Origin: Botryllus schlosseri
Lineage: Eukaryota
Assembly (NCBI GenBank): GCA_051294905.1
Contig: CM119371.1
Span: forward strand, 7,070,001 to 7,130,000
Length of the DNA stretch: 60,000 nucleotides
Direction of reading: 5' to 3'
Positions 1,159-52,924 of the stretch are shown here, piece after piece. The translations under genes were made by a program, and so were the position numbers. The notes beneath the pieces were generated by a model that saw nothing but the letters and a program-made list of their open reading frames with translations, was not told the origin of the DNA and ran no database searches. The stretch's first letter is position 1. Each line of letters begins with the position of its first letter.

Positions 1159-1539
1159 GTTTAAGGGGTTTATAACTGTAACCGGCCAATTATCGTATTA
1201 TATTGCCGATTCCATTGTTTACGAATAGAGATGTAGCAAGAATAGAACATTTATTAACCGTACTGAAATATAATATAATATTGTGTATGGTAAAATTAAG
1301 ATATTCAAATGGAAAAAGGGGCATGGATTTTGAACTGATATTTTGGAATCATTTGATTGATGCGGCCCGCGACACAAGTTGAGTTTGAGACCCCTGACCT
1401 AGGCGATGTAAAGAGGAGGCATCAACACTGAATGAAAAGCAAGGAAGATAGTATAAAAAAAAATAGTGATTTAATCGACAGCGATTACTTGATGACTTGA
1501 AATTGACACGTAAATTTTGCTCCGAGTCATGACTCGAGT

Positions 1540-1970
1540 CAGGGTTGTAATGACTCGAGTCACAATTTTCTGATGACTCGACTTGACTCAAGTCATATTC
1601 TCAAAATACGGAAATGACTCGACTCGACTCGAGTCTATATGTGTACATGACTCGAACCAAGTCATATGACTCGACACTCAGACGGCCAAGACCGACATTT
1701 TATTGCAGTTTCGAAGAATAGTAAATTAGTCACCCTATTGTTACTGATACTTGAAAATGCGACCAGAAACTATTAAAAGTGAGGAAAATTAGTATATTAT
1801 AAATGCGAACCATTCGATATCACCAAACAGAGTTATAGAAAGTGGGTTTGACAAGACTATAAATGGAAAATGAGCAGTCAACACAATCACTTGGACTTGG
1901 ACTCGAGTCAAAATACCATGACTCGGACTCGAACCTCTGCTCGATGACTTGGACTCGGACTTGAATCGGT
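1540..1970 (-). mobile_element. truncated GACTCGAGTC-rich hAT MITE
   Basis: starts cagggttgtaatgactcgagtc; reverse complement of 18625-19201; cut off by the satellite at ~1970. Confidence 0.85.
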
Positions 1971-1971
1971 G

Positions 1972-4831: not shown

Positions 4832-5626
4832 GGTCGCTGGTTTAGCTCAGTGTTTGGAAACGAAATCAGCGAAGCATTTTGTTTGTAGGCGTCATCTGAC
4901 GGATGAGTTTTTGGATTTGGAGGGTAGCTGTTACAGACAGGGTTCGGGTTAAATAATATTTTCATCATTTCAAAACACCACAAGACTGCGATACAATGTA
5001 AAGATATAAAGGTGTCGGAAAGAGTAGTCTCTGAAATCAGACACCCAAGTGGGCTTAGGCCAGGGGTTCTCAAAGGGTGGCCCATGGCGCACTGGTGAGT
5101 CTTAGGACATATTTGAGATGGGCCACACAGCTATCAGCCAACAGGAACGAAAATAATTACGATTATATCATAACTGGAAGTTAATGCTGAAGTAACCAAG
5201 TATTCTGACAGTGGCATACGTCGTATGCCGTTGAACAGAGTGTGCACTGTGCAATAACGTCTGACTGAAGTGTTCGGCAGATCGTATTACCATAGCCTTT
5301 ATAAAGACTATGGTATTACCATAGTATACCACTATTGCAATTTAATATCAATTTTTGTTGCCCAAAATAATAATAATCGTCCGCAACTAGTGGATAATTC
5401 AAAAGAACATCGTATATCAACATTCAACAATCGCATTCTCTACTATAGTTGCTGGCGATTAGGTCTACCCCTGACGTGTGTCAGCCGAAAATATTCGGTT
5501 TCATTTCAATATGAATATACTATACGACCGTATATTGAAGTCCTGTACCTCCAACAAGCTGCACTGAATGAAAAGTAAAGCAAGAATATAATACACAAGC
5601 TAGCCCTGCAAATAGGTACAATCTTT

Positions 5627-23133: not shown

Positions 23134-24789
23134 CTACAAGTCTGCCCAGGTGAGTGCAATCCATCTCTTCACAAATATGGATGTGTAAATTTCAAAACAT
23201 TCATCTACATTTGGTGTCACTACAGTCCATTTGTCTTGCGATATATCATACTTTTCAATTGCATTAGAGGCTTCTCCATCTGGTACTGCGAAAATCCACT
23301 TGCCAATGTGATACGCAGAAACTGGACCATGACGAGCATTCATAGAAGATAATGAAGTCCATTGAGCTGACGTAACATCGTAACATTCTACGGTGTCAAT
23401 TCTCTTTTCTCCTCTCCAGCCACCGATGACAAATATCTTTAGATCAACTGCCACAACTCCACTCCCCCAAACAGGATATCTCATTGGGTCAAGATCAAAC
23501 CACTCTGACGAGGATGGAGTGAATCTGCAAAATGATGAAACTGTGACACCATCTTGTCCGATACCTCCGACACAATAGATGGAATCATTCAACGATACGA
23601 GGCTTGTTGATTGAATTGCGGCAGGCTTGTCTTTTAGTTGCACCCAATGATTCAGGGGAGAAGTAAATATTTCCACATAACTTGTTGCTTCAGAATAACT
23701 TCCTCCAATAACTAATATCGATCCTGACAAAGAAACTGAGCAAGGATCGATACCGTGATCACAAATCATATCATTCATCTTTTCCCATTTTGAATTATTT
23801 CTCTCAAAATTGAGTCGATGAACTGATTTATCGTCACATAGAATGTAGATGTATGAGTCTAGAGAAATCGCCGAGAAATGTCCTAAATTCCAAACGTTCT
23901 CATCATGAAACTCATCTACTTTCTCGGTTACTGGATTGAAGGATCGGATACAATTTGCGTCATAATCAAAGAGAATTATCAATTCATCATTGCCAATTTT
24001 TTCGTTCATTTTGTGTGATGCTTTTGAAGCTTTCAAAATATGTCCAGTGATCAATTTGTACAGTCCTAAGTCATTACCAATAATTTGGTTTGATTCCAAA
24101 AGACATTCTAAAAATGCCGGAGAGGCTCTATCAAACTTGATTGCTCCGAGACATTCGTGCAAATGTTCCTGATTTTTGCGATTTTTCTCAACCCAATTGA
24201 ACAATAACGTTAGTTTTTCTTCTTCGCATAACTTTGATTCTTCCAACTTCACAAAATTCTGGATGCAAGTTTTTCCAATATTTCCAAATTCAGATTGGAT
24301 TGAAATTTCCATGATATTTTCATGAAAAAATGCTCTACATTGCATAGAGATTGTATCCAGTCCATACATATCGGCGACATTTCTTGTAGAAAAGTAATTC
24401 TTTACATTAAGTGATTCCTCCAAAACGTCAGAAACTGCCTGTTTCACGTCTTCCAACTGCATCATGATTGCGACATGAAGAAGATCATTCATCTTTTCAT
24501 GAGGAATCTCAAATTTGCCGGAATATATGAAATCTATGCAGCTTTTCACACACAGAGAATCGACCTCTTTCATAACAACTTTTCCTTCACGACTTTCTTT
24601 GGTGTCGTGCTTTAACATAGCTTTGAAATAAGCACAACCAGCCGACAATACATTTTTGTGAGTGTAATAGACATCATCTCCCACTTGAATTATGAAATCA
24701 CAATGATCGTTTTCTTGCTTCATTCGATGTAATTCTTCCATCATATTCACTGAATGTTTCTCTACATTTTGACACACAATCTGCACCAT
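23134..24789 (-). CDS. intronless Kelch-like protein (BTB-BACK-Kelch repeats), 551 aa, putative CUL3 substrate adaptor
   Basis: BTB motif HCDFIIQVG...HKNVLSAGCAYFKAML, BACK region, Kelch repeats with GG..Y/F..W (LVIGG, YCVGG, FVIGG; VECYD...W). Confidence 0.95.
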   Translation of the reverse strand: MVQIVCQNVEKHSVNMMEELHRMKQENDHCDFIIQVGDDVYYTHKNVLSAGCAYFKAMLKHDTKESREGKVVMKEVDSLCVKSCIDFIYSGKFEIPHEKMNDLLHVAIMMQLEDVKQAVSDVLEESLNVKNYFSTRNVADMYGLDTISMQCRAFFHENIMEISIQSEFGNIGKTCIQNFVKLEESKLCEEEKLTLLFNWVEKNRKNQEHLHECLGAIKFDRASPAFLECLLESNQIIGNDLGLYKLITGHILKASKASHKMNEKIGNDELIILFDYDANCIRSFNPVTEKVDEFHDENVWNLGHFSAISLDSYIYILCDDKSVHRLNFERNNSKWEKMNDMICDHGIDPCSVSLSGSILVIGGSYSEATSYVEIFTSPLNHWVQLKDKPAAIQSTSLVSLNDSIYCVGGIGQDGVTVSSFCRFTPSSSEWFDLDPMRYPVWGSGVVAVDLKIFVIGGWRGEKRIDTVECYDVTSAQWTSLSSMNARHGPVSAYHIGKWIFAVPDGEASNAIEKYDISQDKWTVVTPNVDECFEIYTSIFVKRWIALTWADL

Positions 24790-25832
24790 GATTGTCGATC
24801 AACTACAGTATATAATTATCCTACGATTATTATAATATAGTCAAGCACTGTTATTGAAGTGAAGATGATTAGTTAACTCAAGTAATGCCTGTTGATTGTT
24901 GAAAGAATCACAATACGTCCATCAACGTCACGAGTATGAATTGAAGGAAATTCAACTACACACAAGGTGATCACTGAAAAGTCTGAAATCAGAGGCATTC
25001 CTGCCAAAATGCAGTTAGGAAAACTTCTTCCATCGATTTGCTTTCATTTTTATTCGTTGTATTGACACGAAACCAAAGAATTATTGCGGTCAATTACCAC
25101 AGCCTCGCGAATGATCGAGTTGATTATCCGTAATATAAATTGTATTTTGGAACATCGTAAATTCATTTTATACTATGAGATTTTCCAGGGGCGGCCGCAT
25201 CTGTTTCATGCTCCAGCCGAATATCACGAAGATTGACTTGAAAACAGCAGCGACACGAAAGATCGCGCTGGTTTCACTCCGTGTTTGGAAACGAAATCAG
25301 CGAAGCATGTAGCTTGTCAGTGTCATCTAACGGATAATTAGTTTTTGCATTTCAGGGTAGCTGTTACCACCAATGATATATATATTTATAATTGCGGTTA
25401 CTGACGCGGTAAACCTTGTGCTATCAGTAACAGTACTATCAGTTTGTGAATATTCCAATCATTTCAAAACACCACAAGACTGCGACTAGACGATGTAGAC
25501 AGGGATATTTAGAACTAGTTCTAGCTATCCTTTGGATGTAGAGAAGAGGCATGCACTCACACTGAATGAAAAAAAGTAAAGCAGAAAATATAAAAGACAA
25601 GCTAGCCCTACAAATGGGTACAATCTTTGAAAATAGATGCATTTGCGATAGTCATGGGTCTATAGCTGGATTACCTTGAGCAAAAGTGGAGAAAATTACC
25701 TGCATCTGCATGACATTCTCCCTGACTGTAACATCTGCTTTCACGGTGTGCCCTTTGACGTTCATTTGTTGTTTTAGTTTCATGTTTGGTTGTTCCAAAG
25801 TCTATGTTGAGTGACGTTGGGTTGTTCTAAAT

Positions 25833-26234
25833 CAGGGGCGGGTAACATACGGCCCGCAGCCAGCTTCCGGTCGTATACGATAATGTGGCCCGCGTCTACA
25901 TTCACTCGCGAACCAACGTTTTCGACCATTAACATTAGTTTAACGAGAGCAAGCCTAGTTCCAACGAATCTATGTTTATGGGCAGTCTTTACTGGGGGTT
26001 TGTACGTCCAACATGCAGCCAGAGAGGTCAAAGAACTTGGATCGGGCAATTCATTGACTACTGTTTTTGGTCTGTAACTCTGTATGCTTTACACTCAAAG
26101 TTCGTATTAAATACGATTTTTACCTTGTATAGCAGGATAAAGACGCGATTGATGTATCGATTTAGCAATCCGGCTCACCAAGTACTTGATTTTTCCATTT
26201 CCGGACCGCCGAATGGAGAAGTTGCCCTCCAGGG
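25833..26234. mobile_element. ancestral hAT (Charlie-type) MITE shared by the units
   Basis: TIR caggggcgggtaac / gttgccctccaggg; TSD ttctaaat/ttctgaat; unit-3 copy spans 35983-49774, split by the large insertion. Confidence 0.8.
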
Positions 26235-34083: not shown

Positions 34084-34989
34084 TTACGGTTTTTGAAGCA
34101 TGTCATCATGACACTTCTCTACTTTCTCACTTACTGGACGGAAGGATCGGATACAATCTGCGTCATCATCAAAAAGAATTATCAATTCATCTTTGTCAAT
34201 TTCTTCGTTCATGTTGTGTGACGCTTTTGAAGCTTTCAAAAGATGTCCATTGATCAACTTGTACAGTTCAAAGTCGTTACTGATGATTAGGTTTGATTGC
34301 AAAAGATATTCTAAAAATGCCGGAGAGACTTTATCAAACTTGACGGCTTCAAGACATTCGTGCAAATGTTCCTGATTTTTTCGATTTTTTTCAACCCAAT
34401 TGAACAATAATGTTAGTTTTTCTTCGCATAACTTTGATTTTTCCGACGTCACATAATCGAGGATGTTAGTTTTTTCAACATTTCCAAATTCTAGTTGGTT
34501 TGACATTTCCATAATATTTTCATGAAAAAATGCTCTACATCGCGTGGAGACGGCATCCAGTCCATACATATCGGCGACATTTCTTGTAGAAAAGTAATTC
34601 TCTACATCAACTGATTCCTCCAAAACGTCAGATACTGCCTGTTTCACGTCATCCAACTGCATCATGATTGCGACATGAAGAAGATCATTCATCTTTTCAT
34701 CAGGAATCTCAAATTTGCCCGAATATATGAAATCGATGCAGTTTTTCACACACTGAGAATCGACCTCTTTCAAAACGACTTTTCCTTCGCGACTCTCTTT
34801 GGTGTCGTGTTTCAACATGGCTTTGAAATAAGCACAACCAGCCGACAATACATTTTTGTGAGTGTAATAGACATCATCTCCTACTTGAATTATGAAATCA
34901 CAATGATCGTTTTCTTGCTTCATTCTATGTAATTCTTCCATCATCTTCACTGAATGTTTCTCTACATCTGGACACACAATCTGCACCAT
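34084..34989 (-). CDS. BTB-BACK-only paralogue (Kelch repeats deleted); open frame, functional status unknown
   Basis: aligns to residues 1-~298 of copy 2, then jumps at ~34103 to sequence homologous to ~23050, ending MLQKP*. Confidence 0.8.
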   Translation of the reverse strand: MVQIVCPDVEKHSVKMMEELHRMKQENDHCDFIIQVGDDVYYTHKNVLSAGCAYFKAMLKHDTKESREGKVVLKEVDSQCVKNCIDFIYSGKFEIPDEKMNDLLHVAIMMQLDDVKQAVSDVLEESVDVENYFSTRNVADMYGLDAVSTRCRAFFHENIMEMSNQLEFGNVEKTNILDYVTSEKSKLCEEKLTLLFNWVEKNRKNQEHLHECLEAVKFDKVSPAFLEYLLQSNLIISNDFELYKLINGHLLKASKASHNMNEEIDKDELIILFDDDADCIRSFRPVSEKVEKCHDDMLQKP

Positions 34990-36668
34990 GATTTTCAATC
35001 AACTACAATATACAATTATCCAACGATTATATAATATAGTCAAGCACTGCTATTGCATTAAAGATGATTAGTTAATTCGTAATGCCTGTTCTGTTGAAAG
35101 AATCGTAATAATACCAATACGTATCAACGTCACAAGTATGAATTGAAGGACTTTCAATTACACACAAGGTGAACACTGAACAGTGCTAAATCAGAGACAT
35201 CCCTGCCAATCTGCCATAATGCAGTTATAAAAACTTCTTCCATCGATTTGCTTTACTTTTAGAAATGAAACGAAATAGTTATTGCGGTCGATTACCACCC
35301 CCGGCCACGGGAATGATCGAGTTGATTATCCGTAATCTAAATTGTATTTTGGAACACTGTTAAATAATTTGGTACTATGGTATATTCCAGGGGTGGCCGC
35401 ACATGTTTCATGCTCCAACCGAATATATCAAAGATTGATTTTAAAAGAGTGGCAACATGAAAGATCATGCTAGTGATTTCACTACGTGTTTGGAAACGAA
35501 ATCAGCGAAGCATGTGGCTTGTCAGTGTCATCTGACGGAAAATTAGTTTTTGAATTTGCAGTGCAGCTGTTACCAATGATACATATCATTGCGGTTACTG
35601 ACAGAGTAAACCTTGTGCTATCAGTAACAGCTATTCAGTTTAATAATATTTTCATCATTTCAAAACACCACAAGACTGCCACTAGGCGATGTAGAGAAGA
35701 GGCACTATAGAGGCACGCACGCACACTGAATGAAAAGTACACCAGAGAATATAAAAGACAAGCTAGTCCTACAGATGAGTACAATCTTTGAAAATTTATG
35801 CATTTACGATAGGTATGGGTCTAAACAACAGTTCAAGTAGTAGTAGAGGGATTACCTCCTGAAAACAGTGGAGAAGATTAACTGCATCCGCGTGATTCTC
35901 TCCCTGACTGTAAAATCTACCTTCATTGTGTACCCTTTGATATTCATTTGTTGTTATAGTTTCATGCTTGGTTGTTCTAAATCAGGGGCGGGCAACATAA
36001 GGCCCGCAGACAGCTTCCGGTCGTATACGATAATGTGGCCCGCGTCTACATTCCCTCGCGAGCCAATGTTTTCAACTATGAACATTAGCCTAAACAAGAC
36101 AAAGCCTCGTTCCAATCAAACTTATGTTTACGTGGAGTCTTTACTGAGGGTTTGGAACTAGTGCACTATACACCAACATTACCCGTTCATGGTGATCACT
36201 TTATTGACTAAGTACTTTTACACGTCAACCTTTTTTTTTATTGTTCTCTCGAATTGATATTTCATTACTCAACAGATTTCTAGTTGCGAGGTTTCAGTTT
36301 TTTTTCCGTTTACGCTCATTACGTAAAATAATTCACTTGATACCTATTATAAACGATGCACTGCCATTCATTTATGCTTCGTTACATAGCTATCTTACCA
36401 TGACTCACAGTTTTTCCCTTTAACGCCCATTACGTGAAACACGGAGTGCTTGGGACTCATCATAAACGATACGCCAAAGGATTTGTTTTATACGCATGAT
36501 ACCTATCACCATTTTTCTTAACGATTTACCAAAATTATAACGTTACACTTCATTACTTCCCTATAACAAACTATGAAAATCCCGTATTTACATCTAAATT
36601 TTAAACACCCATTCTTACCTTCAGATTTAGTCATTCTCCGTTGTGTTCCGTATTACTCTTATTGCCAT

Positions 36669-38470
36669 CTATTGACTTGTTCCGTTTCGTCTCCTCGTGT
36701 TCCTCATACGACTTAAGGTTCTACGTCGACGACACCTTATACAACCTACCCATAACACAATCACCAGAGCTATCAACCCGGTTACCATCATTATCACAGC
36801 AACCGGTTTCAGTGTAGTAGGGATGGTGTGAACCTCTGAAAGGTTCGGGTTCGTGTGAACGTGAACCTTTTTGAAAGGTTCTGTGTGAACACGAACGTGA
36901 ACCTCATGACGTCACGTGACGTCATATTGCTAATTTCAACCCCATATTTCAATTAGGTGATTGCCTATATTAATCTACTGTACACGATACCGAGCGACGA
37001 CTCGGGGCCACATAATAGCTCAGTACTTAAGTACATATTGACGTTTGAAACGTCACCAAATCTATCAACTGAGGCAATCAAATGATATCATAATCTCATA
37101 AAATCAGTATCTTGCGTCGCTTTGCCAACAATTTCAACCTGATTGGACAATGTGTTCAGCGTCTGAGTATTGCCATATGGATATTGAGCAAAGTGTAAAA
37201 TGGGTTTCTATACTTGCTACCGATTAACAAGTTATACGGCAGTATAGCCAACACCCCAGTGGCACAGATTTGGTTTTTATGATACAGTATACATATGTAG
37301 TCAAGATTGACCCCGTACGCCTGCTAGACGATATCAATCTCGTTGATTGGTTGAATAAGGATCATTTGCTGACAAAATACAGTGTATTTCGCTCTTGATG
37401 TCATGTGATTGCGGGTCAAGCTCACAGCACAGAGACACCAAATATGCACGAACGGAAAGCTGGATATTTCGAGCAAACTTTTGTAACAATACAAGTAAAT
37501 TTTTGAGATTGTCAAGGGCATGCTCGTTTAGTGTTGAATCTTTATGTTGCCAGTTCCATGCATGTGAGAGGCCCGCAGTTGAAAGTCAATAAATTTGAAA
37601 GAAATATATAATGAAGGGAAAATTGCAATTTATGAAAAAGGTTCACAGTGCAGAACCTACCAAGGTTCTGTTGTGAACGCGAACCTCAAATTTTCCGAGG
37701 TTCACACACAGAACGCGAACGTGAACCTCACGTTCACACCATCCCTACAGTGTAGGTATCAGTTTCGCACCTTCCATAATCATCCTATCGATCAAGATTA
37801 ATCCACTTACCTTATATCCACCTTCCATCATCACCAGTTCGTGCAGCCATCGAGTATAGTTGTGGTCAACGAAATCTGTGGTTGTCTTCCCCACGGTGGT
37901 TCTTGATATTCGGGAATACTCAGGAGCGGGTGTTCCCAAACTTCGGGTTTTCTGCCCGGGCTGCGGCGATGTGTTAGCCATCGTTGACTCAAAGGTAATA
38001 TTCATTAGTTCGACACTCTTCGAGGACGAGTCGTCTTTGTCGTCTCCTGTTGAATACAAAACAGTTGTTTCGGTACTTACCTTGCGGTTGTGGTCTGGGT
38101 TTTGGTAGTCCGTTCCGATGTCGGTCCTGCCGTCTTCCGTGGTGTTCTGCAGAGCCTTCGCAGTGGTGACCGGATGCACTCGCATCGTTGTTGGTGTTTC
38201 ACCAATGATTTTCTTCATTCCGTAGGTTTGGTTTCACGCGCGAAGAGTTTGCAACTGTTGCTTCCCATAAGTCGCATCAGTTGGTTTGACAGTTTTATAC
38301 TCCCCCTTTTTGTTAGCCATCGATTTCGATCGTCTTCCTTGCACCAGCCTCGCTTTCATCCGCCATTGTTTTGTTAGGGGTGGCAGATGTTTCAGCGCTG
38401 TAGTGCTTGGATCATAGTCTTTCGCCGCTGGAGTTACCCACGTCGGACTGTAGTAAGCGATCATGTACAC
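36669..38470 (-). pseudogene. env-position single-pass membrane glycoprotein ORF, disrupted by a MITE and one in-frame TGA
   Basis: ORF 37745-38218 continues in frame after removing the MITE and one TSD: ...IPTL-KPVAVIMMVTGLIALVIVLWVGCIRCRRRR...GTSQ* (stop 36669-36671); ORF 38234-38470 is in the same frame. Confidence 0.7.
36818..37747. mobile_element. hAT (Ac-type) MITE with gtgaac subterminal motifs
   Basis: TIRs tagggatggtgtgaac/gttcacaccatcccta; perfect TSD cagtgtag. Confidence 0.95.
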
Positions 38471-38554
38471 TTCTTGGGATGGGGGTTTACCTCTGACGTC
38501 TGTCTTGCTACTATCGAGTGCGACACGCCTTGTCTTGTTAGTCTTTCATTTATT

Positions 38555-40300
38555 TTCTCATGAACAACAAAAATAGCCAATTTTCATTCGGCAAAACCTT
38601 GTTCAATAATACCAAAATAAGGTATTATATCTATTGCTTCCTTTAGTGCCTTCGCCTGACCCTCCCGCGTCGGGTTATAAGGGCCAGAAACGAAAGGCTT
38701 AGTCGATGGGTCCTTACGTCCGATGTCGCATTGGTATTTCATGGATTGGGGGGCGCTGAGTTGGCCCCGCAGGCTATCAAGTTCGGAAGCAAATGGATCA
38801 TAAACGGCTGTCAAGACTCCTTCAGGGATGGCGATTTTTTCTAGGCCAGTCAAAAGTCAGGAGGTTTGTATGACAGTTTCGCCAGTGCTACCGATTGTGC
38901 ACAGAGACTTTCGAGTTCCGTCTTCACGCTGGGACTGGTGTCTTGTTGTAAGGTTACATAGTAATTGGGCCAGTTATTGGCCCAATGCGAATCTCGTTAT
39001 GAACGGGGTTTTGGTGTTGGTGGAGAGAAGGGCGAGGTTCTTCGTTGTCAGCGGGGATTCCCAACCTATTCAATCTGACCTCTGATCTCGGCGTGTGCCC
39101 ACGCCTACCGTCACGCCGGCGGATTCAGTCGCCGCCGGGGGCCCGTTTCTGGGGAGACGTGCATCTTAAAATCCCCAGACTCCTTGCCGGTCATGACCGG
39201 ACATGTGTCCGGTTAGCCGGTAACAGCTGCTTTGTTTGGGAAATTACTCATAACTGTGGCTGTCGTCATGCATCTATGGGCCGAATTGTTACAGTTATTC
39301 GGACAAGTGCATCCACGAGAGCTTTCAGGACCAGTTTTCTCGTGCAGGTCCTTATTTACGTCAGCCGGGATTCCGCGCTCGACGTCTTCATTATTGGTGC
39401 CGTCAGGGATTCCTGACTCGACACATCTTTAGTTAGTGCCAGCAGTGCTAACTGACCCGACACTTTCTCGACTAGTGCCAGCAGGGGCTACCTGACCCAA
39501 CACTAGGGATTTCCCATATTTTTTTGACCTTTTGGGAAAGAAGGTAAGACAGTTGCCGTCGTTAGATCGGCGTATTTATGATTGGTGCCAGCAGGGATTC
39601 CTAACTCGACACATTTCGCGCCAGTGGTGATTACCATCTCGACACTTGCGCCAGCGGCAACGGCCTGCATGCGGCGACACAGACAACGTGCCGGCTCGAC
39701 GCTTATCTGGTTTGCAGCTTCCATCAACCCATCATCGGTTACAGTGTCGCGAAGACTGCTTCCGACTTTGGTTCCGTCCCGTTGATCACACGAGATCCCG
39801 TCATGAAGCATTACTAAAGACAACCCTTCGTTTGCATTAGGCGGAGATTCAAATTCAGTCGCTATGTTTGGTAATTGTTGTACATGATCAATCCATTTTA
39901 GACCTACAATATCGAGAGGTCTCCTTCCTCGATCGCAAATGGAGCCGATAGTCCGTCGAAATTGATTATTACTAAGGAGTCAACGTGGGAGGAGTCACAT
40001 ATATCACGTAGTTTCATGTCTATAGGTTGTCGCTCCTCCCAGCTTGGCGGGTATTAGGTTTCTACGACGTTTTTCAATTTGAGGACGCTTCCCGTGTCGG
40101 CGCAGAAAACCCCAGTTGTGATCCTTCGACGATCTTTTCTTTTCATAGATTGGCGTTCGCAGATAGTAAGGAGGTAATCGATGTGTTCGTCTTCAGACTC
40201 TCCCCCGTCCACTGAAATTGCCAAGAAATGACGCTGAGCCCCAGAAGACCAGTTGGTGCCTCCATTTGATTATAGTGTAGCTTCATGGCGCTTGCCATGC
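38555..40300 (-). pseudogene. degenerate Ty3/Gypsy-like gag and RT N-terminal remnant
   Basis: KPFVSGPYN...LKEAIDIIPYFGIIEQGFAE*KLAIFVVHEK resembles the PY...GIIEPSxSxWxSPxxxVxKK start of Gypsy RT; GESEDEHIDYLLTICE (~40210-40160) is gag-like; possible decayed knuckle CYRLTGHM (~39225-39200); judged by eye. Confidence 0.6.
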
Positions 40301-40683
40301 AAGTGTTCCACACTTGGTTCGATTTACTTCACAGAGCTCAACCCCATCTCCTGGCTTTTCCACATTTTTCCATACCCCTTATACAACCCGGTTTTGTCGA
40401 CGTTGATTGAAGCATTGGTTGTGGATTGATCGAACGAAGCAGTGACCTTGGAAGGTCCAGCGGCTCAAACTATTCATACAATAGACAAGCCCCTTGGCTT
40501 AATACAACCAAATACTCCAATAATTATCATGCAGACAGAATGAGGTATCTAAGCAAAATTCGGTTAAATTGGCATATAGAATATCCATCAATTATAACCC
40601 AAGATAAAGCTTAAACCTATTCATATTCATGCACGATTTAATGTATTTTAAATACTCCAAGGTTTGTTTTCGCATAGAAACTA

Positions 40684-40879
40684 TGCGACGGCCTTTCCTG
40701 CCGAAGTGGTATCTTTCAGGGTTTGTTAACACATAATTAATGTGACGGCCTTTCCTGCCGTAAAATAACTCATAGGTTTGTTTACACATATAATGCATGT
40801 GACGGCCTGTCCTGCCGTAAAGCAGCTCCGAGGTTAGTTTACACATCTAATGAATGTGACGGCCTTTCCTGCCGTAAAG
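40684..40879. repeat. 57-bp tandem repeat with internal hairpin acggc-N7-gccgt
   Basis: units start at 40684, 40741, 40798, 40855. Confidence 0.95.
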
Positions 40880-42334
40880 TTCATTCATGACATATCGCTA
40901 CATGATACACCATTCAATCACAATAGTCATGCACGATCCAATGTTTTAATCACTATCTGTTATATCTCTGCGTTCCTTTGTATCGGTGTGTATAAGCTTT
41001 TTATTCATTCGTATGTACCGTGTCTCACAAACAATCGATCTGATTTACCACGAATCTCTAACTCTACACATGCTCCAATAAGGTAGAGGTTCCTAGCTTA
41101 GTCTAAGGGCGCGTAGCTAGTTATAACGCGTAACTCCGGGAGGTTTCAACATTAAGGACTTTGTATCGTTGACCCGATTAACATGGCCATATGCCAATTA
41201 AAGTGCACTTGATGATACTACCCTTAACAAGGTGTTGCTTATTCGAACACTGTTAGATACCCAGGGTCCCTTTTACGGGTTTCTGAAGAAATCCCTAACC
41301 ATTTCTAATCCTAAGCTTCTATCCCGTTAGGGTGAAGGGTCCCGACACTAATATAGGGCGTGGTCGGTGTATAACGCCTTATTAATACCTACAGTTGTAG
41401 TACTCGCTATTAAATTACTGCAGTAACAACCAACTATTCTCATATTAAATGTTCATAACTTATACCTATATTTAAGACATGTTAGCGTCATCTTAAAGCA
41501 ATATGATGGTAAATGTCAAAGATTAGGTAAATGCAGTACTTGAACAATATAGGAAAGATAGGCGTCACGTTGCAATAATACGTCATAGTAAACCCTCCCA
41601 TGAAAATACCCTTTTGCAGATTGATTTTTGCCAATACAGTAAACTTCATAGTTCATACACGTCATGATTGCAATACGACAAAATGGCGCTCGTCAGGCGC
41701 ATTCACTTCGTAAAGTGAATACGCGGACAAAGCGGGTTTTAGGCTAGTGTCATATTCCATCATCGACATATCAGTTTCGAAAAACGAATGTGTGGATAAG
41801 TTCAACCATGGGTTACTTTTCTAAGGTCTTTATATTAGCAGTACTGGCCTGAAGTATTCCTAATGTTATAGGCCTAGTAATTCCGGTTATATAATATTTC
41901 TGTATTTATTGTAGTTGGTGCCTAAAACGTTTTGGAAAGTCTGTCGATATTCTTGGTCTAAAGACCAAGGTATCGATCCATTATTTTAGTAGCCCTAATC
42001 GTTTTGGAAAGTATATCGGTCTTCTCCAGGATCTACCACCAAGGTACCGAGGTAGCAATTTGAAATCCGTTGACATTGTTGTTTGCGATTAGATAGCCGG
42101 CAACTATACTGGCGCTTCAGCGCTAGGACGTAAAATCGACACAAGGCCCCGATACACATGACAACACAAAATGGACACAGTAGCCAACGAACTGGCTCGC
42201 TGCTCCGTGACCATTTACAGCGTCTCCACAGGGGCATTGACGTCCTGATCAGAATGGTATTGAGTGTATTGACCTTGCCGGAATAGTAGCACTTGTGACG
42301 TTCAGATATAGTTAAATATATTTCCATTTCGAGT

Positions 42335-42494
42335 CAGACCCAGACAACTAAAAAATTTTCAGCTTTTCCGAATTAGATGAGATTTAGAGCTACACAGCTT
42401 TTTCAAATTATGTTAAAATTAGAATTAGATTACTGGCATTTCGCTCTAATTCCGTGAGATTAGACGACTAGGATTATTTAGTTGTCCAAGCCTG
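42335..42494. mobile_element. short hAT-like MITE (aattaga-rich family)
   Basis: imperfect TIRs cagacccagacaactaaa/tttagttgtccaagcctg; TSD tttcgagt/gttcgagt. Confidence 0.75.
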
Positions 42495-43381
42495 GTTCGA
42501 GTCGCCTGCTGGCAGTACCAATAATAAATCCAATTTGACTTTGTCCTTGTTATTACTTAATGCGACAAGTCGGTATATTTCTGAAGCTATTCTTGAGTTA
42601 GTGCGTTTCATCTTACGTCAGCGAGGTAAATTGTCCTCAAAAACACTAAACAAGAATGCTCTAAAATGCTGACAAAACCATGGAATATCTAGGTACAAAG
42701 GCACCTGCCTTATTGTCGGCATAAATATGCACAGCGAACGGCACAATTGGCGCACTGCGATACCACATATTTACAACGCCGCAACATACCCTACGGAAAC
42801 TTTATCGCTGCTAGTGATTATTTTTCATCCTCACTAATTCTTGGTCCTAGTTCGGCCCATGTAAGCTTACACGAAATAATAGAGTGTTTTTCGGCATATT
42901 CAAATCTTGACTGGAGTCAGGCTCACTTTCAACTAGACACTTTCATCCCGCCAAATCTGTCGCAGCCAATTACTATACACGCGGCAGGATAGTTAGTACT
43001 ACTGCCCTGGATCGCAGTTTCGTGGTGTTTTGAAATGATGAAAATATTATTAAAACTGATTGACTAAACGCGGCATAAGCACTCGTCATTTCCTGCTTTT
43101 ATATCTCTAGACATTAGTATCTCTGGACTTTAATTAAACTATACTAACTGTCCTACTCAAATTTTCGCGTAAATGAATTACATACTATTCGTATTGATTA
43201 TTCGAGCGGGTTTCTGCAGATATGGATCAATACCGTTAAGCATGATCCGTTTTGAATACTATCGATAAAATGTGTTAATATGGTGTAGCCTTCTTTGTTT
43301 CATCAATGGCGACTAGGACTATATACTGCGCATGTTTGAGAACAAACGGCAATATTCGCGAAGGATTTCATATGTCGTCAC

Positions 43382-45591
43382 TAGGGCCATTTAAAGTCAT
43401 ATCTTTTTCTATGCATCAGTAAGTCGTGAAATCAATTTTAACGCAAAAACCGCATCCATATGGGGTATATTAAGAAAGTTATAAAGTCATATAAAGTCAT
43501 ATTTTCCTGGTTAGATCATATTTGAGTTATAAAGTCATATTGTTGTATACTTTAAATAAAAAGTGCCAAATGAAACAATTACGCACTAAGAAAGTAAGGC
43601 AATTTCCGATTGAACGAAGGCAAACTGTAAGGTTAGCCTACATAACATTACAGTCGCAGACTTACGAGGTCACACATTGCATTATGAGGTCACACATTGC
43701 ATTGTGTTGCTACATAATCTGTTTTACTTCTGTGCACTAGAGATGTACAGGATCAGGATTTTGGATTCTAACAGGTCAGGAATCCGGGTGATTTTTTGGC
43801 AACAGGATTGGATCCGGATTCCAAATTTTACTGTTTTGCCGGATCCGGATCAGGACAGGATTTTTATTTTAAGGAAAACCTGATCAGAATCATGTCCAAC
43901 ATGTTCAGATTCAGAACAGGCAAAAACTTATCTTTTCGGAGTTTATAAACTATATTTTTTACATGTCTGATAACATATATTTTCCGCTTAGGAAATTTGT
44001 CAGATCTTGATGTTGGTTGATATCGTTTGGGGTTCTTGTCTAATTCAGAATGTCTAAGATTTTAAAATTGATAGCTCGGAATGACATTGTTACGGCCGAA
44101 AATACCGCCACAAAGACGAAAAGTGATGTCTGGAGACAGTTCCGACATTTCGTAGACAAGCAAGATGGGAAATATGCTGGGTATGTCGTATGTCATGTGC
44201 TGCCATCCTGCCAATATTATCTCAAAGTTCAACTGATGAGCTCGAACACTACCATACATTATATTAGGAGTCCTCTGAGTGACTCGGAGATTGGAGATCA
44301 CATCGGCTTACTGAAATATTGAACGAATCTCAGTATCATTGCCAGGTATCCAAATCTCAGTAGACTTGCTGTTGGGTGTTGGGGTGATCAAAATCAGTAT
44401 TCCTGCATGCAGCATCAAATGCATCCTGTGAAAGGGCTTTCAGTTTGTGTGGGAATACTATTGCTAAAAAAAGATCCTTACTCTCAGCTTACAGATTACT
44501 AGACAGCTTACTAGATGTTTTAGTTGTATTGAAAAGTGCTGGTGAATGGTGACGATGTTTTCAAGTGAGGTCAGGCGGATTGTGTCATCATTTCTTTTTT
44601 TTCTGTCAGTCTGTATCTTAGCGATGACCACGTCGCACTTCTTGCATACAATTTTAGTTATCATCTGTCTGTTTGCAGTGTGTGAACTACTATTATTTTG
44701 TAAGTTCATCCTGCTTTCAGCTTCTGTTGATGTTTTCCAGAAACCACATATTGTAATATGATATTTACCGCTGCTCATAACATGGATCATGAAGCAATTT
44801 TTGAAAACAGGATTATTTTTGGACTCGGATAGTGAAATATGCGATTGCAACAGGATCAGGATTGGATCAGGATTATGATATCATGAAACAGGATTGGATC
44901 AGGATCTTAAAAAACCATGATCCGTACATCTCTACTGTGCACTGAAGTGGGACGTCATTTGAAGTTCAGAGACTTCCACAAGTGAAAGAAATAGTCAACG
45001 CATGGGAAGCTGAAGGAGTTTTTATAAAGAGCGTCAAAGATTCAGTGAACGAGCCAAAGTGGACGAGTTAACAGAAATATGCCTCCACTACAACAATATT
45101 TCAAACTTGATACTGAAAATGTAACGTACACTATCAAAGAGGCTCATGCTGATCTAAATGCCCTCGAATTCGCAAAAAATCCGCTTGAGCTCAAAAATTA
45201 CATTAAGAAGCGATTGGACAAAAACGATGTGAAACAAATTATGGAGCTACAAAGACAAGACATTTCACCAGCGCTGTATGCAAAACTGCAAAGTGTCAAC
45301 CCACATCAGCGTCTGTGGAGCGCTCATTTTCCTTACTAAAGTAATTTTACGTCCAATCGTAACTTTAAAGTCTCCAACATTCCACACTACATGAAACTAC
45401 TACAAAAGTGGTTTAAAATAAAAATGGATGCGTATTACTGTTATGTTGTTCATGTCTTACTCGTCAGTTCCATGAGTGACGTTGGTTACATGTAAAAATA
45501 CACGATTTTCGCATAAAGTCATATAAAGTCATATTTTCCCAAAAATAAAGTCATATAATTGATTTTTTAAGGTCATATAAAAATGGACCTA
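43382..45591 (+). mobile_element. internally deleted hAT transposon with transposase C-terminal remnant
   Basis: TIRs tagggccattt/aaatggaccta; TSD gtcgtcac/gtcatcac; frameshifted CQPTSASVERSFSLLK motif at ~45294-45341 following ORF 45079. Confidence 0.88.
43738..44934 (+). mobile_element. nested internally deleted hAT (Ac-type) transposon
   Basis: TIRs tagagatgtac/gtacatctcta; perfect TSD ctgtgcac; BED-finger start KSDVWRQF...YVVC and dimerization remnants RYPNLSRLA / ASCERAFSLCG. Confidence 0.92.
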
Positions 45592-45632
45592 GTCATCACC
45601 CATTCGAATTACAACAGAATATGACTGATATC

Positions 45633-46762
45633 CAGAGGTGGTTGGTCACGAAGTACTTCTACTTTTTGGAAGTACTCAAGTAGTTTTCCTCTACTTCTGG
45701 TACTTATTCAAGTAGATCTGATTTTCTCTACTTCTACTTCTACTTCGTAATATTTTGTGATCTACTTACTTAATTTTCGCTATTTTCAGTTTGTCAAGTA
45801 GAAGTAGTCTAATTCCCCAATACGAACGATAACTTGAGGAATTCCGCGGCTGTTTTCATGGAGTACCAACATTTAATATTCATAAGAGTCAAGTAAAGCC
45901 CAGGAATTTTATTGCGCTTCGCGCATAGTAGTAATGGAGTGACAAATATGTTTTCATGAAAGTATCAGTGAATGTAATTTAGGTACCGGATGCTTGGTTC
46001 CTCTCACACCGCATTGTCGTCCTTATCAAATATTTCATCACAGTAAATATGGCTCACCACAACGTTTGAAACTACTGTTTCACAATCTAGCAATTGCCTA
46101 TCATATTGTAATCTAGCAGCCCGTTACGTGTCTTGATAATCTGGAAAATCCAGCTTTTTTGAACGTTACACCTGTTTTAGCAGATGACCTTTTAAGCTTT
46201 GTAGACAAAATACAGGAAATATATTCTCCGCTTTTTAGAAGTGGTATTTGTATTTCATTTTAATTAACGTATAATAATCACGCAAAGTGATGTAACCGTA
46301 TCCGACACATTTTCTACGTATTGCTCTTTGCCTAAACTTGTGGCCTTATAATATGGGGTAGGGCGCAATCCCATGATATTCTCTAAAAACGGGGTGTTCC
46401 AGTAAACAAAAGATAAGTATCGCATTTTCATATCAGTACTATAATTTGCATCCCATGATGCGAAACAATAGTTATTATGTCGAAAGTTGATACCTCCTGG
46501 GATGCATCAATACGAATCAAGCTCCCTGCACGGGCCGCATAGCTCAATTCGCAGCTTTTGACAGTCCATGCGAACGAATTAAGACTGTTTTCAAAACTAC
46601 TTACTTACTTGAGTAGATATAAAGTCAGTTAATTCTACTTCTACTTCAAGTAGTTTTAGGTGGCTTATTGAAGAAGTACTTCTACTTGTACTTGAGTAGA
46701 TTTTTCCGTCGCTACTCCTACTTCTACTTGAGTAGCTTTCTTGACTACTTTGACCACCTCTG
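45633..46762. mobile_element. non-autonomous hAT-like element
   Basis: TIRs cagaggtggt/accacctctg; perfect TSD ctgatatc. Confidence 0.9.
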
Positions 46763-47130: not shown

Positions 47131-50100
47131 TGAATCAAATACTGAATAAACTTAAATTTACATACGCTCTGATCTTCGATGACGTAACCTCGGTGCAACA
47201 ATGCCAGCCTCGTCCGTGCGTAGATGCGGTCTGCCTATAAGCTTCAATTCCTCCGCTTCGTGTTGGAGTCCGAATTGGACTGGATAGATGGTGATTCGAG
47301 GCTGCTTATATGCATTTCTGTTTCAAAAACAAACAAGGTCTTCCCTGCCAAGAGCTGGCTATAAGTTTCGGGCCCAGTTCGTGATGAGTTATTTTCTTTT
47401 TAATCTTTTTATGAATCACAGTTCGTGCTCCATCCGCGGCCATTAACTAATTGTTTTCGGCTCTACCAGCTACCAAAATGGCACAGCTTCGTGTGCGAGT
47501 TAATCTCCCTCATCATTATAAATGACCCATTATAACGACTTCGTGCACGAGCAGAAATAACTAAGTGTCACGATTCGGCCTCGGCTCCTTATTTGGATAG
47601 AAACATCGGTCGCCCTTTTTGATTTTGTGCCAAACCAATACATTGCAGTACCTCGCTCGCTGCAATCACCTTTCCCCCACTCAGAGAAATACATTACCTT
47701 TGGGTTGTCAGTCCTTTTACAAGCTTACTCAGCAACCCACACACAACAACGTCTAACAACAAGAATTCTTCAATTCGGGTTTTCATGCGAAGCCTAGCTT
47801 GAACTCCGGGATCCTAGTATTTTTAGGCGTCAGAGGCATACCCTGTACGACCTTAGCTTGGCTGGCCCATAATTGGTCGAAGCGACGACCTAGCGCATCA
47901 CAAATAGCCCCCCTTTTTTAATAAAAGGGCGACTTTTGTTCATATATTTCTTTAGGTCGCCAGCGGGCGCTGTTGTTTCATTATGCGCACACGAAATTCA
48001 TTCGAGGTTCTCCTAAACTGGATTATAGCATAGAGAGTACCGCACGAATAATTTGTATCTTCTTTGTACGGGCGAAACCAGAATACATATATTCTTGCGC
48101 GCTGTGTCAAATACATGCGACATCATATGCCAACGATTGTTAACACACGGCGTTGATCACCCGAATTTAGTGCGAGTTTAGAATCCCGGACTATTGTTGA
48201 TTTTCCTGAGGTGAATTTATTGAAATTCAACGTCGAGTTAACTTTATGTTTTCTTTCACCGAATAGTTGCAAAATTGCGGAGTTTTAAAAGGGTCAAAAT
48301 ACAACTACAGGTCACATTACTTTGGTATAGATACAGTATCACGTCAGATATATCTTCGCTTGTATATTTATATCGGCCGCACGAGATACGTAGCTGGGTG
48401 TTTACCTTAGATGGATTGTTCTCGAGTTTCATGATCAAAAAGTGGTAGGTTCACGCGGGTTTTCACTACGCGGCCATCCATATGGTAATCTCGTTATCAT
48501 GTTGCATCACCAACCAGCAAGCCAGTGTCGAAAACGTCCGTTCAGCAAAACTACTTGAACTAATTCAGAACTCGCACCGCCGCGAATCTCGCGCCTCATC
48601 AGCACCTGACAGCACAACCCAACGCCAAGCACCGCATAATGCACTTCTGCACAGTATTAATTACAGAGCAAACGCTTACCATACTGACCAAGCGATCAAT
48701 TGTACAAAGCAGATGAGAATTAACATCCATCATGCGGTATATACGGGAGAGCACAGATAATAACGCGCGAATGATCAGGCTATTATTGTATCTCCCCTAT
48801 AAAGGTGAGATCGTAATTCACATTTTCCTACGTGCTATGTCAAATACCCGTGACAACGCATCCCCACGATCGCTAACACACGGCGCTTTTCACCCGCGTG
48901 AATGGAGATTCAAATTGAGTGTGAATTTAGGATCACATACAATTGTCGTTTTTCTGACGTGAGCTTACCGAACTAATTTCAACAATAATTCCAAAGGTCA
49001 TGTATTCCCGTATGTATATAAAAAAAACGCAACTACAGGTCGCATTAATTTGGTAAATTAAAAGTCCGCTGCTCGCCGTCATATTAACTTTGCCGCAACG
49101 ATAGGTCTTCGCATCTCATTCGAGTTATACCATATGGCATCGATTATGAAATTTGACCCTTTATAACTTCCTGAATTCGCATCGCCCATTAAGCGATAAC
49201 AGTTATTCACTCTACCAAGCTAGATTTAAATATGTGGTTGCCGCGATTCACTGACTATACAGCCGGCGAGTTCACATTTCGCCTCAATTAAAATGGCCGA
49301 CAGATTATACCTCTGATCGTTAATGTTCGTTCCTTGTATTTATCCTCGGTACACGAATACTACATTAATGCCTTCAAGTTCAGATTACTCTACACTACAT
49401 TTCTACCCTTTTCTTTACGCTTACACGTCAATTTTTGGTGGGGTTAAGTTCATCTGTTCCATATGAGTTCAAATAAACTTCAATAAAATATATGCTTCGT
49501 CATATTACACTTCTTTTACAACCATTCTCTCGAATTTCAAACAGTGTTCTCCGTGTAACAGAGGGTACTAGGTATATGAGAACCGAGGGTTTGTACCTCT
49601 AACACGCAGCCAGAGAGTTCAAAGTACTTGTATTGACTACTGTTTTTGGTATCTATGCTTTACGCTCAAAGTTTATATTAAATGCGATTTATTCCTTGTA
49701 CAGGTGGACAAAGACACGATTGAAGTATCGATTCAGAAATCCGACCCACCGAATGGAGAAGTTGCCCGCCCCGGTTCTGAATGTTCAGTTGTTCACGCAT
49801 AATTATCAGGTCGACAACTTGCTAGATTTCCCAATTTCATGCTTTCAAAATAGTTTACTTTTGGAAACAGTAGACAAGTAATAAATCCAATTGTGTAAAA
49901 TTCATTTCGCAGAAAATTATGATAATTTACTATTACGCAGTAGGGTGGAGTGAAAAATGAAAATTTTCGAATTTCAAAAATGTGTCTTGATATGTGGTGC
50001 CAAATAGCATTGAATAAATAAATTCTGTCATAATTTTGGGTTCGTACACCCTCTGGTGGTCGTGCACTTTCACCGAACGAGCCGAAAATAGCCAATTTCG

Positions 50101-51289
50101 CCATATCTTGATATAACCGCTTACACTAGAAAGCTGGTTTTGGGCTTAAAAAAGCAGAAGCAACATGTGTCTATCTTACTTCCATGGAACTTACTCTTAA
50201 AAATGAACAGAAAAAAGTTTTTTCTGTTCTGATTTTATAGGTAAAATTAAGCACTGAAGCAGTGGGTATAGGATGTCAAAAGCGTGTATTGATTGATCTT
50301 ATGACTGAGCATCAATAACAACTACTTTTCAAAACTTCCTCAAACAAATGAAGCCCCCTCCAAGTATAAATAGGGCTCGGGCATCGAATAGTGACTGTTA
50401 AAACTGCATTTACAAATGCGTACTTCGGTAGTGCGGCCTCGCGATATAGTGATAAGTTTAAAACAGTGACCGTCAAGAGATTTCTTACTAACATGCTGTT
50501 GTAGGGTTTGTATCACATATATCACAAGGCCCCGGATTGAAAACACTAAAATTGAAATTCCCAATTCCGCATTCAGAACACAAACTGTTGTGTTCCTCTT
50601 AAACTATTCCTTGATCTTCTATCAAAGAAGGCTATACCGATGCAGTACAAGTACGACCACGTTTATTCACGACCAAACCTTAACAGAACTACGACACGCG
50701 AAATACTAACGACGGTAGGAACACAGGAAAACAATCAACGAGCATGAGTCATCATTGACAAACGCAAAGTAATTCCACAACACAAACATCAATGCTGTAT
50801 TGGAAACAGAAAATTTTTGTACAGGCTGCACAAACATTAATATCATGTTTAGTATTAAAATATTTCGTATGATTTTGAGACTTCAGTTTTTGTCTGATGA
50901 GGCCATCTCTACGTTTGAATTCTAAAACATGGACAGATGCATCGGTGACCACTGTCACAATGTCCACTGCCTCGTTGTGGCAAGGATGACAGCCGTAATG
51001 GTGAGGATCTTGGGTTTTCCAGCTCGAGATCTGACAAGGTCTTGATTTCAGGCGGCTGTGCAATATCTTTTTTTAGGTTTGGTTTCATTTATATATCCAA
51101 CTTCAAAGTCGTAAATTTGAATTTGGTACGATGTGGTTGATCCAGCATAGCTGCAATCTCTACAAGTCTTCGGACGCTTTTCTCCTCGTCACCAAGCATT
51201 CCCAGCTAAACATTTTCTGGGTGATCAAAATAAGCATTTCTTTGTAGCATAGATATTGCAAGAGAACGAATTCATGTATCAGGCAGCTT

Positions 51290-51293
<4 letters not shown>

Positions 51294-51323
<30 letters not shown>

Positions 51324-51777
51324 TTTATTTTCATCAAACCAAAATACATAACACACGGCAGTGGTGATGGTACAGAAAATATGCATGCACACTGCACAGT
51401 ATTCGGTATTAGGTAGGAATGACCGATAAGACCGTGAAGGTCATCTAGTCTGATCACACCAGCATCAAACAGGTACACTTGACTCTAAGCAGTCTGGCTG
51501 TAAAAAATGTTACAGTAGTTAAAAAAAATAAAATAGAAGAAAAATTAAACGATGGTATAGCAAATGATCAATGAAGCAATGTCTGGACGAGGTATGGCAA
51601 CAGTGTTAGTGTGACGATAAGAGGTGACCAAGTAGGGCTTTTTGGAATCTATTATAGGGCAATTCACGGATATGTGGTGGTAATGCATTCCAGATGATAG
51701 GTCCCGAGTAGTCGATGGACCTCTTAGTTAAGTTGCTATTGGGTGGGGGTAAGTAGATCTTTCCATTAGACGAGGAA
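51294..51777 (-). mobile_element. 5'-truncated LINE (CR1/L2/Crack group) 3' end with (CT)n tail
   Basis: ORF2 C-terminal-type motif KRSIDYSGPIIWNALP...FQKAL, 3' UTR, AATAAA then (CT)n; absent from copy A (~15283). Confidence 0.8.
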
Positions 51778-52924
51778 CAGGAAACTATATCGTAGACAAT
51801 TTTTGCGCCATCAACAACGGAATTGTGCATTTTTATTTCAAACCATGACACAAAATAGACTTCCATGCGGAATTGAGCAAGACATAGTTCAGATTTCTCG
51901 ATGATAACTCTGTCCCACACAGTACCTTGTAAATTTGGCATGTGAGAGTCAACAATCTTGCATGAACGATCGGCTCAGCCTCTAAATATTGCAGATCTGC
52001 TTCCAATTGGCGACTTAGATGGATATATAAATGAAACCAAACCTAAAAACAGCAACATTGACACCAGCATCAGATTCTTCCGAATTCCAACTATGAATAT
52101 CGATTCTACATCTTCCAAATTGTCAACTTAAAATCAGACATATCGAAAAGCCGCCTGCAACCATGACCTTGTCAGATCTCGAGCTGGAAAACCCAAGATA
52201 ATCACCAATTTCGCCCAGATATTCTGGCCACAACCAGGCAGTGATGACTAAAGCATCTGCGCATGTTTCAGGATTCAAAAGTAAAGATGGCCTCATCAGA
52301 CAAAAACTGAAGTCTCGCAAATATTTTGTTTCCAATATAGAATTGATATTTTTGTTTTGAATGTGGATCTCCAATTTTTGTGCTTTCAATCAGGAGCTTT
52401 GTGATGCATGTGATACAAACCCTACAACAGCATGTTGGTAAAAATGTCTTTACAGTGACTGTTTTTAGGTTATCGAAATCGCGAGGCCGCACTACCGATG
52501 AACGCCGTTTTAGGTACAGTTTTAGAAGTCACTATTGATGCCCGAGCCCTATTTATACTTGGAGGGGGCTTCATTTGTTTGAGCAAGTTTCGAAAAGTAG
52601 TTGCAATTGATAAGGTATGTTGCTCAGTCATAAGATCAATCACTACACGCTTTTGACATCCCACCCACTGCTTCAGTGCTTAATTTGCGTGTAACTTTGT
52701 TCTGTTCATTTTCAAGAGTAAGTTCTGTGGAAGTGAGATAGAAACATATTGCTTCTGCATCTTTTAAGCATAAAACTGACTTTCTAGTGTAAGCGGTTAT
52801 CAAGATATGGCGAAATTGGCTATTTTCGGCTCGCTCGGTGAAAGTGCACGACCACTAGAGGGCGTACGAAACAAAATTGATGACAGAATTTATTTATTTG
52901 CTATTTGGCACCACATATCAAGAT

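Follow-up and report, generated by a model that had tools for sequence, protein, structure and literature searches.

A repeated element on the minus strand of a Botryllus schlosseri contig contains a reading frame whose product would be a small single-pass membrane protein, downstream of a junction from which the core of pol is missing. The element lies in a 60,000-nucleotide (nt) stretch, hereafter the window (assembly GCA_051294905.1, contig CM119371.1, positions 7,070,001 to 7,130,000; positions below count from its first letter), and its features are listed in table 1. Our leading interpretation, to which we assign a probability of about 45%, is that it belongs to a non-autonomous Ty3/Gypsy-like family from which most of pol is gone, whose gag/protease region has decayed and which retains one small single-pass membrane-protein frame, struck in this copy by a miniature inverted-repeat transposable element (MITE). 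The MITE, the in-phase pieces of the membrane open reading frame (ORF), the anchor and the pol-less junction shared with other copies are seen directly in the DNA; the reverse transcriptase (RT) start of the element is weakly shown, by resemblance in sequence.

A membrane-protein frame split by a MITE

The membrane ORF falls into two pieces that flank the MITE and are in phase across it, giving 157 + 46 = 203 codons when the break is read as X. The 157-amino-acid piece is 23.5% Thr plus Ser, has no Cys and bears the N-glycosylation sequons NTT, NIT, NTS and NYT at residues 25, 73, 82 and 120. Four sequons were reached in 115 of 5,000 residue shuffles, so their number is mildly above the expectation from composition; a fifth is located behind the anchor. 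With a hydropathy KD19 of 2.92, the hydrophobic segment of the 46-codon piece has no equal in strength among the 501 stop-free frames of at least 46 amino acids in the window, and is also alone among them in having at least four basic residues after it, in a 22-residue tail that begins with RCRRRR. None of 5,000 base shuffles of the anchor DNA matched its hydrophobicity. The membrane frame is a real anchor-coding frame. The first-pass annotation of this DNA had described a 157-amino-acid ORF that excision of the MITE at 36818-37747 would fuse to 46 further codons, yielding a 203-residue Thr/Ser-rich protein with four sequons, a hydrophobic segment, an RCRRRR tail and a Cys-free ectodomain, and that observation holds. 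In many other copies the 3' piece is closed by a different stop, so the true C-terminus of the membrane ORF appears uncertain.

Contigs from all four sequencing runs examined cross the insertion point without the MITE. The joint runs from 36809 to 37748, skipping 938 nt, with 8 letters that match either side. In a diverged form of the element, 953 letters are skipped and 15 lie between, so that the net length equals that of the empty site. Short inverted ends, an 8-nt target-site duplication, subterminal repeats, high abundance and polymorphic empty sites are the defining features of hAT-derived MITEs, and the MITE in the window shares all of them and contains no transposase; its 12 subterminal motifs are of the GTGAAC type. 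Its duplication and short inverted ends place it presumably in the hAT superfamily. It differs from other hAT-derived MITEs in that no autonomous partner was identified for it, and a literature search on its end motif gave only irrelevant matches. In run X1, the MITE is covered by far more sequence than the DNA on either side of it, and both of its borders show hundreds of loose contig ends. In runs X3 and X4, the depth of the empty-site joint, a rough guide, is close to that of the other contigs of the element, and the MITE-bearing copy in the window is therefore probably a minority form.

Among the 24 public runs listed, from nine studies, 20 contain at least half of the sequence words of the element; four runs were examined for contigs, whose depth we do not take as copy number, and none of the runs is on record as RNA. 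Four runs that come from the same study contain almost none of the words, which we do not count as evidence. Contigs that are ∼99% alike tile 36301-36809 and 37761-40538. A contig of run X3 (record 17) bridges the RT-like peptide and the upstream ORF without an RT core and with two differences from the window, and a diverged contig, ∼87% alike (run X1, record 7), makes the same bridge with 19 differences and three gap letters in ∼170. Because both a near-identical and a diverged copy cross this junction without an RT core, the loss of pol is shared among copies and older than ∼13% divergence. The first-pass annotation had taken the element for a single fossil, which is too narrow a view, as the pol-less layout is that of a family. 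The contigs seen show the pol-less junction only and none is linked to a full pol, with the proviso that contigs cannot show absence.

Diverged pieces over the membrane ORF (run X1, records 5 and 6) differ at 24 of 165 and 20 of 177 letters without a gap, for a total of 44 substitutions and no gaps in 342 letters. Diverged pieces elsewhere in the element are mostly gapped (records 3, 7, 30 and 31).

Retroelement affinities and extent of the element

Comparisons with retroelements drew on 171 reference loci fetched by an RT motif, of which 130 have an RT-like frame, 79 remained after removal of near-duplicates and 68 have enough upstream sequence to serve as RT starts; Pol proteins were also fetched, and profiles were built from both. 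Loci L052-L131 include eukaryotic Gypsy RT contigs from many bacterial and archaeal genome bins, several per bin in some marine bins, a pattern that is probably host contamination. With the profile of the 68 diverse starts, the peptide at 38739-38560 ranks first of 1,596 window tiles at 6.2 bits. The next tile scores 2.2 bits, reversed tiles reach 1.6 bits at most, and the score of the peptide was reached in two of 2,000 shuffles. Fifty-seven columns are in register, and the peptide lies directly upstream of the membrane ORF on the same strand. Its identity to ordinary Gypsy RT starts is low (best, 15 of 57 columns), and it has no Pfam match, no usable match in the ESM Atlas and no homologue in protein or metagenome searches. 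For grouping by RT domain, only this peptide is available, with no RT core, and it is too short for a tree. In the ∼350 nt between it and the membrane ORF, Pfam searches with stops read as X found no RNase H or integrase core.

The upstream ORF is in the frame of the membrane ORF and is separated from the membrane-ORF ATG by one stop and five codons. Within it, a 12-nt purine run (38300-38311, minus strand) resembles a retroviral purine tract. Two ideas formed by eye, a GPY/F-like motif in this ORF and an RRSxR-like tail motif, found no support. The region farther upstream, where gag and protease would be expected, has 24-32 stops per frame, so that a missed domain there is weak evidence. Three copies of a 48-nt unit lie at 39379-39614 within it. 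A protease motif suspected by eye near 39310 or 40110 found no support in profiles, and the 158-amino-acid frame has no homologue in protein or metagenome searches. Three statements of the first-pass annotation about this side of the element survive in part. The upstream ORF does share the frame with a single intervening stop, but is 76 amino acids long from its ATG and reaches the 78 claimed only from a GTG; an RT-start-like peptide is present upstream on the same strand, but the likeness is weak (6.2 bits, E value 1.2); and the frames called gag-like are present, but their Gag likeness is not confirmed by profile and library searches.

Pfam searches on 13 frames, 10 frames with stops read as X and 10 further pieces did not return any retroelement family, no PHROGs match to 10 pieces had an E value under 0.1, sequence searches of the PDB gave chance-level matches only (MRT4, bacterioferritin), and Rfam and tRNA scans gave no matches.

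The GC content of the element is 48-49%, against 37-38% in its flanks. On the downstream side, host DNA that is also present at a second kelch-like gene ends at 36154, and the candidate 3' end next to it is a possible lone long terminal repeat (LTR), judging from its sequence features, with no partner in the window. On the other side, contig 13 of run X16 passes from 40031-40538 to 41370-41796 through ∼1370 letters unlike the window; the far end of the element was not found. Short minus-strand frames at 41519-41820 and 41998-42333, in or near the upstream block, match no Pfam family and could be accessory genes; one of them (112 amino acids) has a Cys-rich hydrophobic stretch. Of the features that define Ty3/Gypsy elements, the domain order protease, RT, RNase H and integrase is missing from this copy, which has only a weak integrase-end motif, and in place of two LTRs, a 4-6-nt duplication, a primer site and a purine tract there is one candidate 3' end. 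The element therefore cannot be filed as a Ty3/Gypsy member.

Table 1. Features of the element and its MITE, in window coordinates.
Feature	Position	Strand	Remarks
Candidate 3' end	36155-36421	-	Purine run 36421-36411, TG two letters on, two AATAAA; host DNA from 36154
Membrane ORF, 3' piece	36669-36809	-	46 codons, stop 36669-36671; anchor ~36738-36803, RCRRRR 36720-36737, basic tail
Left 8-nt target-site duplication copy	36810-36817	.	Identical to right copy; 8-letter ambiguous joint
MITE, presumed hAT type	36818-37747	.	930 nt, inverted ends of 16 nt that match perfectly, 12 subterminal motifs; sits inside membrane ORF
Right 8-nt target-site duplication copy	37748-37755	.	Identical to left copy; 8-letter ambiguous joint
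Membrane ORF, 5' piece	37748-38218	-	157 codons, ATG at 38218; rich in Thr/Ser, Cys-free, with four sequons and without a signal peptide
Integrase-end-like stretch	38132-38194	-	21 residues (ORF residues 9-29); weak match to end of Gypsy integrase
Upstream ORF	38234-38464	-	76 amino acids from ATG, 103 stop to stop; hydrophilic, no family match
Ty3/Gypsy RT-start-like peptide	38560-38739	-	One stop within aligned block; RT core does not follow
Broken GC-rich region, expected gag/protease place	38857-40500	-	49% GC; identity unproven; longest frame 158 amino acids, 39503-39979
57-nt repeat, 3.5 copies	40683-40880	.	Upstream non-coding part; other copies have different DNA across 40539-41369
Upstream block of same element	41370-41796	.	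Joined to 40031-40538 on one contig (run X16, contig 13)

The surrounding DNA holds other repeats and genes. Two intronless BTB-BACK-kelch genes lie on the minus strand, one of 554 codons at 23134-24798 and one at 34084-34998 that is cut to 304 codons and has no kelch repeats; the likeness between the segments 23900-26002 and 34103-36154 is 83%. A third such gene is represented by its start at the window edge (1-215). A 41-nt satellite forms two blocks in opposite orientation (247-727 and 1972-4800). An inverted pair of ∼1.1 kb, 90% alike, is at 14016-15102 and 15507-16603, with further copies at 49930-52923. A hAT transposon remnant at ∼43770-44910 includes a weak hAT dimerisation match below the cut-off (44388-44549, E 0.007) and repeated motifs at 43801-43819 and 44855-44905, and is flanked by an identical 27-nt direct repeat (43481-43507 and 45513-45539, 2032 nt apart).

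Nature of the membrane protein and competing readings

Several results count against placing the element in a pol-deleted Ty3/Gypsy-like family with a retained membrane gene. The RT-start match is not significant window-wide (HMMER E 1.2), and this is the fair figure because the peptide had been picked by eye from the window; requiring the match to lie in this element would lower the chance to a few in a hundred. A profile of nine sequences missed the peptide, a profile of 59 sequences ranked it second with a reversed control scoring higher, a glocal scan ranked it fourth, and hhalign over 63 columns gave P 0.026 and a probability of 1.9%. Searches of Pfam, the PDB and proteins, and comparisons with 77 gag/protease regions and the 79 loci, gave no match to Gag; none of the 58 best matches of the gag/protease comparison falls in the GC-rich region, and protease and zinc-knuckle profiles are unsupported at ranks 13 and 19, the latter being that of a knuckle-like peptide. 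There is no LTR pair and no direct repeat pair around the element within the window. The 208-codon open run is not far beyond the 158 codons that remain in the decayed part. A diverged piece from outside the ORF (record 8) is also gap-free and only the longest pieces were listed, so the lack of gaps in the membrane ORF is only a hint that its reading frame may have been kept. Finally, neither the membrane ORF nor the upstream frame has a signal peptide in its first 35 residues (KD10 ≤0.6), as judged by hydropathy rather than a trained predictor.

The last point bears on what the protein could be. A protein with a single anchor 22 residues from its C-terminus and no signal sequence is expected to be tail-anchored, its Thr-rich part facing the cytosol. 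As far as 43100, the remaining minus strand has just two other hydrophobic stretches, at ∼40536 and ∼42183, and neither is linked to the membrane ORF. No fusion-peptide motif, F-X-G or N-[L/V]-G occurs in the 157-residue piece, and the one minimal RXXR, at residue 103, has no hydrophobic peptide behind it. Neither Pfam nor PHROGs has a family match to the membrane ORF, and the 46-codon piece has generic transmembrane-like Pfam matches below the cut-off (E 0.03-0.3). The 157-residue piece has no relative among 1.84 billion representatives or in metagenome contigs, where there was no exact DNA match either; the best ESM Atlas score of the membrane ORF is 0.83, with low recognition, and single-sequence AlphaFold models reach pLDDT 42 and 37, the latter for the 157-codon piece. 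Of the features of errantivirus Env, the ORF has the C-terminal anchor with a short basic tail. It has neither the N-terminal signal peptide or transmembrane segment nor the structured, Cys-bridged ectodomain with furin site and fusion peptide. Because no signal peptide, ectodomain Cys, fusion-peptide motif or relative was found in the databases searched, the labels "glycoprotein" and "Env" are unproven for this product, and the earlier claim of an Env at the env position is not supported. That the membrane ORF was independently acquired is possible.

The strongest competitor, though clearly less probable, is that the membrane frame is the end of Pol and that a separate small ORF3 never existed. 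It would then comprise the last integrase strands and a low-complexity Pol tail, to which a second internal deletion attached the anchor and tail of a longer Env, or else the anchor would be fused to Pol. Such a protein would have arisen by deletion and be either tail-anchored or junk, and its sequons would be unused. For two related Pol tails, the integrase-end-like stretch is the top of 1,596 tiles (score 59, with 47 and 51 for the next), a 34-sequence profile ranks it eighth of 1,008, and the pattern [MILV][KR][IV]HPV occurs once in the six frames of the window, in this place, with a similar motif in 22 of 42 tails. The missing signal peptide is in keeping with such an origin, and at reference locus L002 a Pol tail continues without a frame change through a hydrophobic stretch and into Env-like sequence (the Env likeness judged by eye); such fusions therefore exist. 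The match is nevertheless weak, because 47 tails were compared and this is the best among them (median z 0.16) and a second, 16-sequence profile did not recover it, and the placement of four of six Asn residues in sequons (115 of 5,000 shuffles) fits a luminal domain instead. Locus L002 itself (3-5957, minus strand) is a Gypsy gag-pol frame of 1,985 amino acids whose integrase tail leads to the hydrophobic stretch and an F-like Env start, the frame being cut by the contig end.

We think it unlikely that the element is instead a non-autonomous repeat outside Gypsy whose membrane ORF is an exon taken from a mucin- or proteoglycan-like membrane gene of the host, its RT likeness being due to chance. 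A Thr/Ser stalk, an anchor and a basic tail are a common build of host proteins, which the membrane ORF fits, no profile was significant for any retroelement domain, and an LTR pair is absent. Yet no relative is present among the 1.84 billion representatives, the top RT-start tile of the window sits in this element and on the right strand, and a simple pattern found no acceptor-like site in 38200-38600. Somewhat less likely still is a deleted derivative of LTR-less, retrovirus-like elements with transposase ends, of which the ORF would be an accessory surface protein: the absence of an LTR pair and the low identity to ordinary Gypsy RT starts (15 of 57 columns at best) would suit it, but no inverted ends flanked by a target duplication were found when 36000-36460 was compared with 40500-46000. 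Least probable is that the anchor arises by accident when GAT/GGT-rich DNA is read out of frame, the long frame being a product of chance. The anchor DNA has much G and T; one of its other frames reads Asp/Gly-rich and the remaining one is full of stops, and dinucleotide shuffles of the local DNA yield a 162-codon frame in 184 of 2,000 cases (a 208-codon stop-free frame in 32). Against this stand the in-phase sides of the ORF and an internal repeat of the anchor DNA that is not significant (59 of 1,000). An off-frame origin of the anchor was mostly rejected, as no base shuffle in 5,000 reaches its hydrophobicity and T is at the second position in 15 of 24 codons, versus 6 and 4 in the other frames.

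Under the preferred reading of a non-autonomous Ty3/Gypsy-like family, most of pol would have been lost long ago and the gag/protease region left to decay, a single downstream frame, encoding a small membrane protein that spans the membrane once, would have been retained, and the MITE would later have jumped into that frame of the window copy. Copies may have spread in trans, with RT and integrase borrowed from a complete relative. The membrane ORF could be read from a shorter RNA, spliced or started at an internal promoter, by analogy with the Tor elements as described in PMC4402516, and such a leader might supply a signal sequence unless this was lost. The protein would be a glycan-rich accessory of the surface or particle, acting in attachment, shielding or interference, rather than a fusogen. 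Of the interpretation first offered, the anchor frame downstream of a weak RT start is supported, in a repeat whose other copies have the pol-less junction too. Gag or protease likeness, an LTR pair and an envelope role are not supported.

Comparison with known systems

It is doubtful, though worth stating, that the ORF encodes a small, Cys-free, mucin-like surface protein, kept under selection in a family that has shed gag and pol function and unrelated to F- and gB-type Env, and so represents a third class of gene at the env position of animal Gypsy elements. If it did, the protein could be an attachment or shielding partner for the fusogens of other elements or an interference factor useful to the host, and such a family would bear on how often retroelements independently pick up membrane genes. 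The gain is limited unless complete relatives appear, as the evidence comes from short contigs and a single broken copy, and families that combine a deleted pol with a small membrane ORF are known. A literature search for mucin-like ORF3 or env genes in Gypsy elements or tunicate endogenous retroviruses, with most subscription papers outside its scope, found nothing.

In a recent survey of animal env-bearing Gypsy elements (PMC13524379, Chary and Hayashi 2026), env genes are sorted into F and gB types, and a family of Cys-free, mucin-like anchored ORFs, if real, would fall outside both. The gag-pol-env order of these errantiviruses in invertebrates, including tunicates, would be shared with the layout proposed here. 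Their Env has a large Cys-bridged ectodomain between a signal peptide (or transmembrane segment) and a transmembrane segment (PMC13524379), in contrast to the Botryllus ORF, which is ∼200 amino acids long, Cys-free before the anchor and without a signal peptide. The supplement of that survey lists tunicate elements, and relatives may be found there.

In the tunicate Oikopleura dioica, the env-position gene of the Gypsy elements Tor3a, Tor3b and Tor4b encodes a glycoprotein with a C-terminal anchor, expressed from spliced or internally started RNA (PMC4402516, Henriet et al. 2015). The C-terminal anchor and a putative Gypsy-type layout are what the Botryllus element has in common with them. Tor copies have LTRs and intact ORFs, unlike the element in the window, and in the Env of Tor3b and Tor4b seven Cys are conserved, F-X-G and N-[L/V]-G motifs are present, and furin yields products of 60-65 kDa (PMC4402516). 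The 157-residue piece has none of these motifs, and the Botryllus membrane ORF fails the comparison of features with these proteins.

Closer parallels come from rotifers, for which small membrane ORF3s that are neither F nor gB in type have already been published in Gypsy elements (PMC5408684). In bdelloid rotifers, the ORF3s of Vesta4 and Vesta6c are 210-230 amino acids long, have transmembrane segments, lie downstream of pol and show little or no homology to known env, and TelKA2n is a non-autonomous family in which most of pol is missing but the env-position ORF persists (PMC5408684, Rodriguez et al. 2017). The same source cautions that transmembrane segments and sequons are insufficient to call an ORF env. 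What is shared with these elements is a small membrane ORF at the env position and a family without most of pol (PMC5408684). The differences are that the ORF3 of Vesta4 has two transmembrane regions, cysteines, an RXXR and a coiled coil, that the ORF3 of Vesta6c weakly resembles gp41, and that the env-like ORF of TelKA2n comes from a clade with F-type Env (PMC5408684), whereas the Botryllus ORF has one anchor, no Cys before it and a Thr/Ser-rich composition. At most, then, the Botryllus element may be said to resemble the Vesta4 and Vesta6c ORF3s together with the pol-deleted TelKA2n (PMC5408684).

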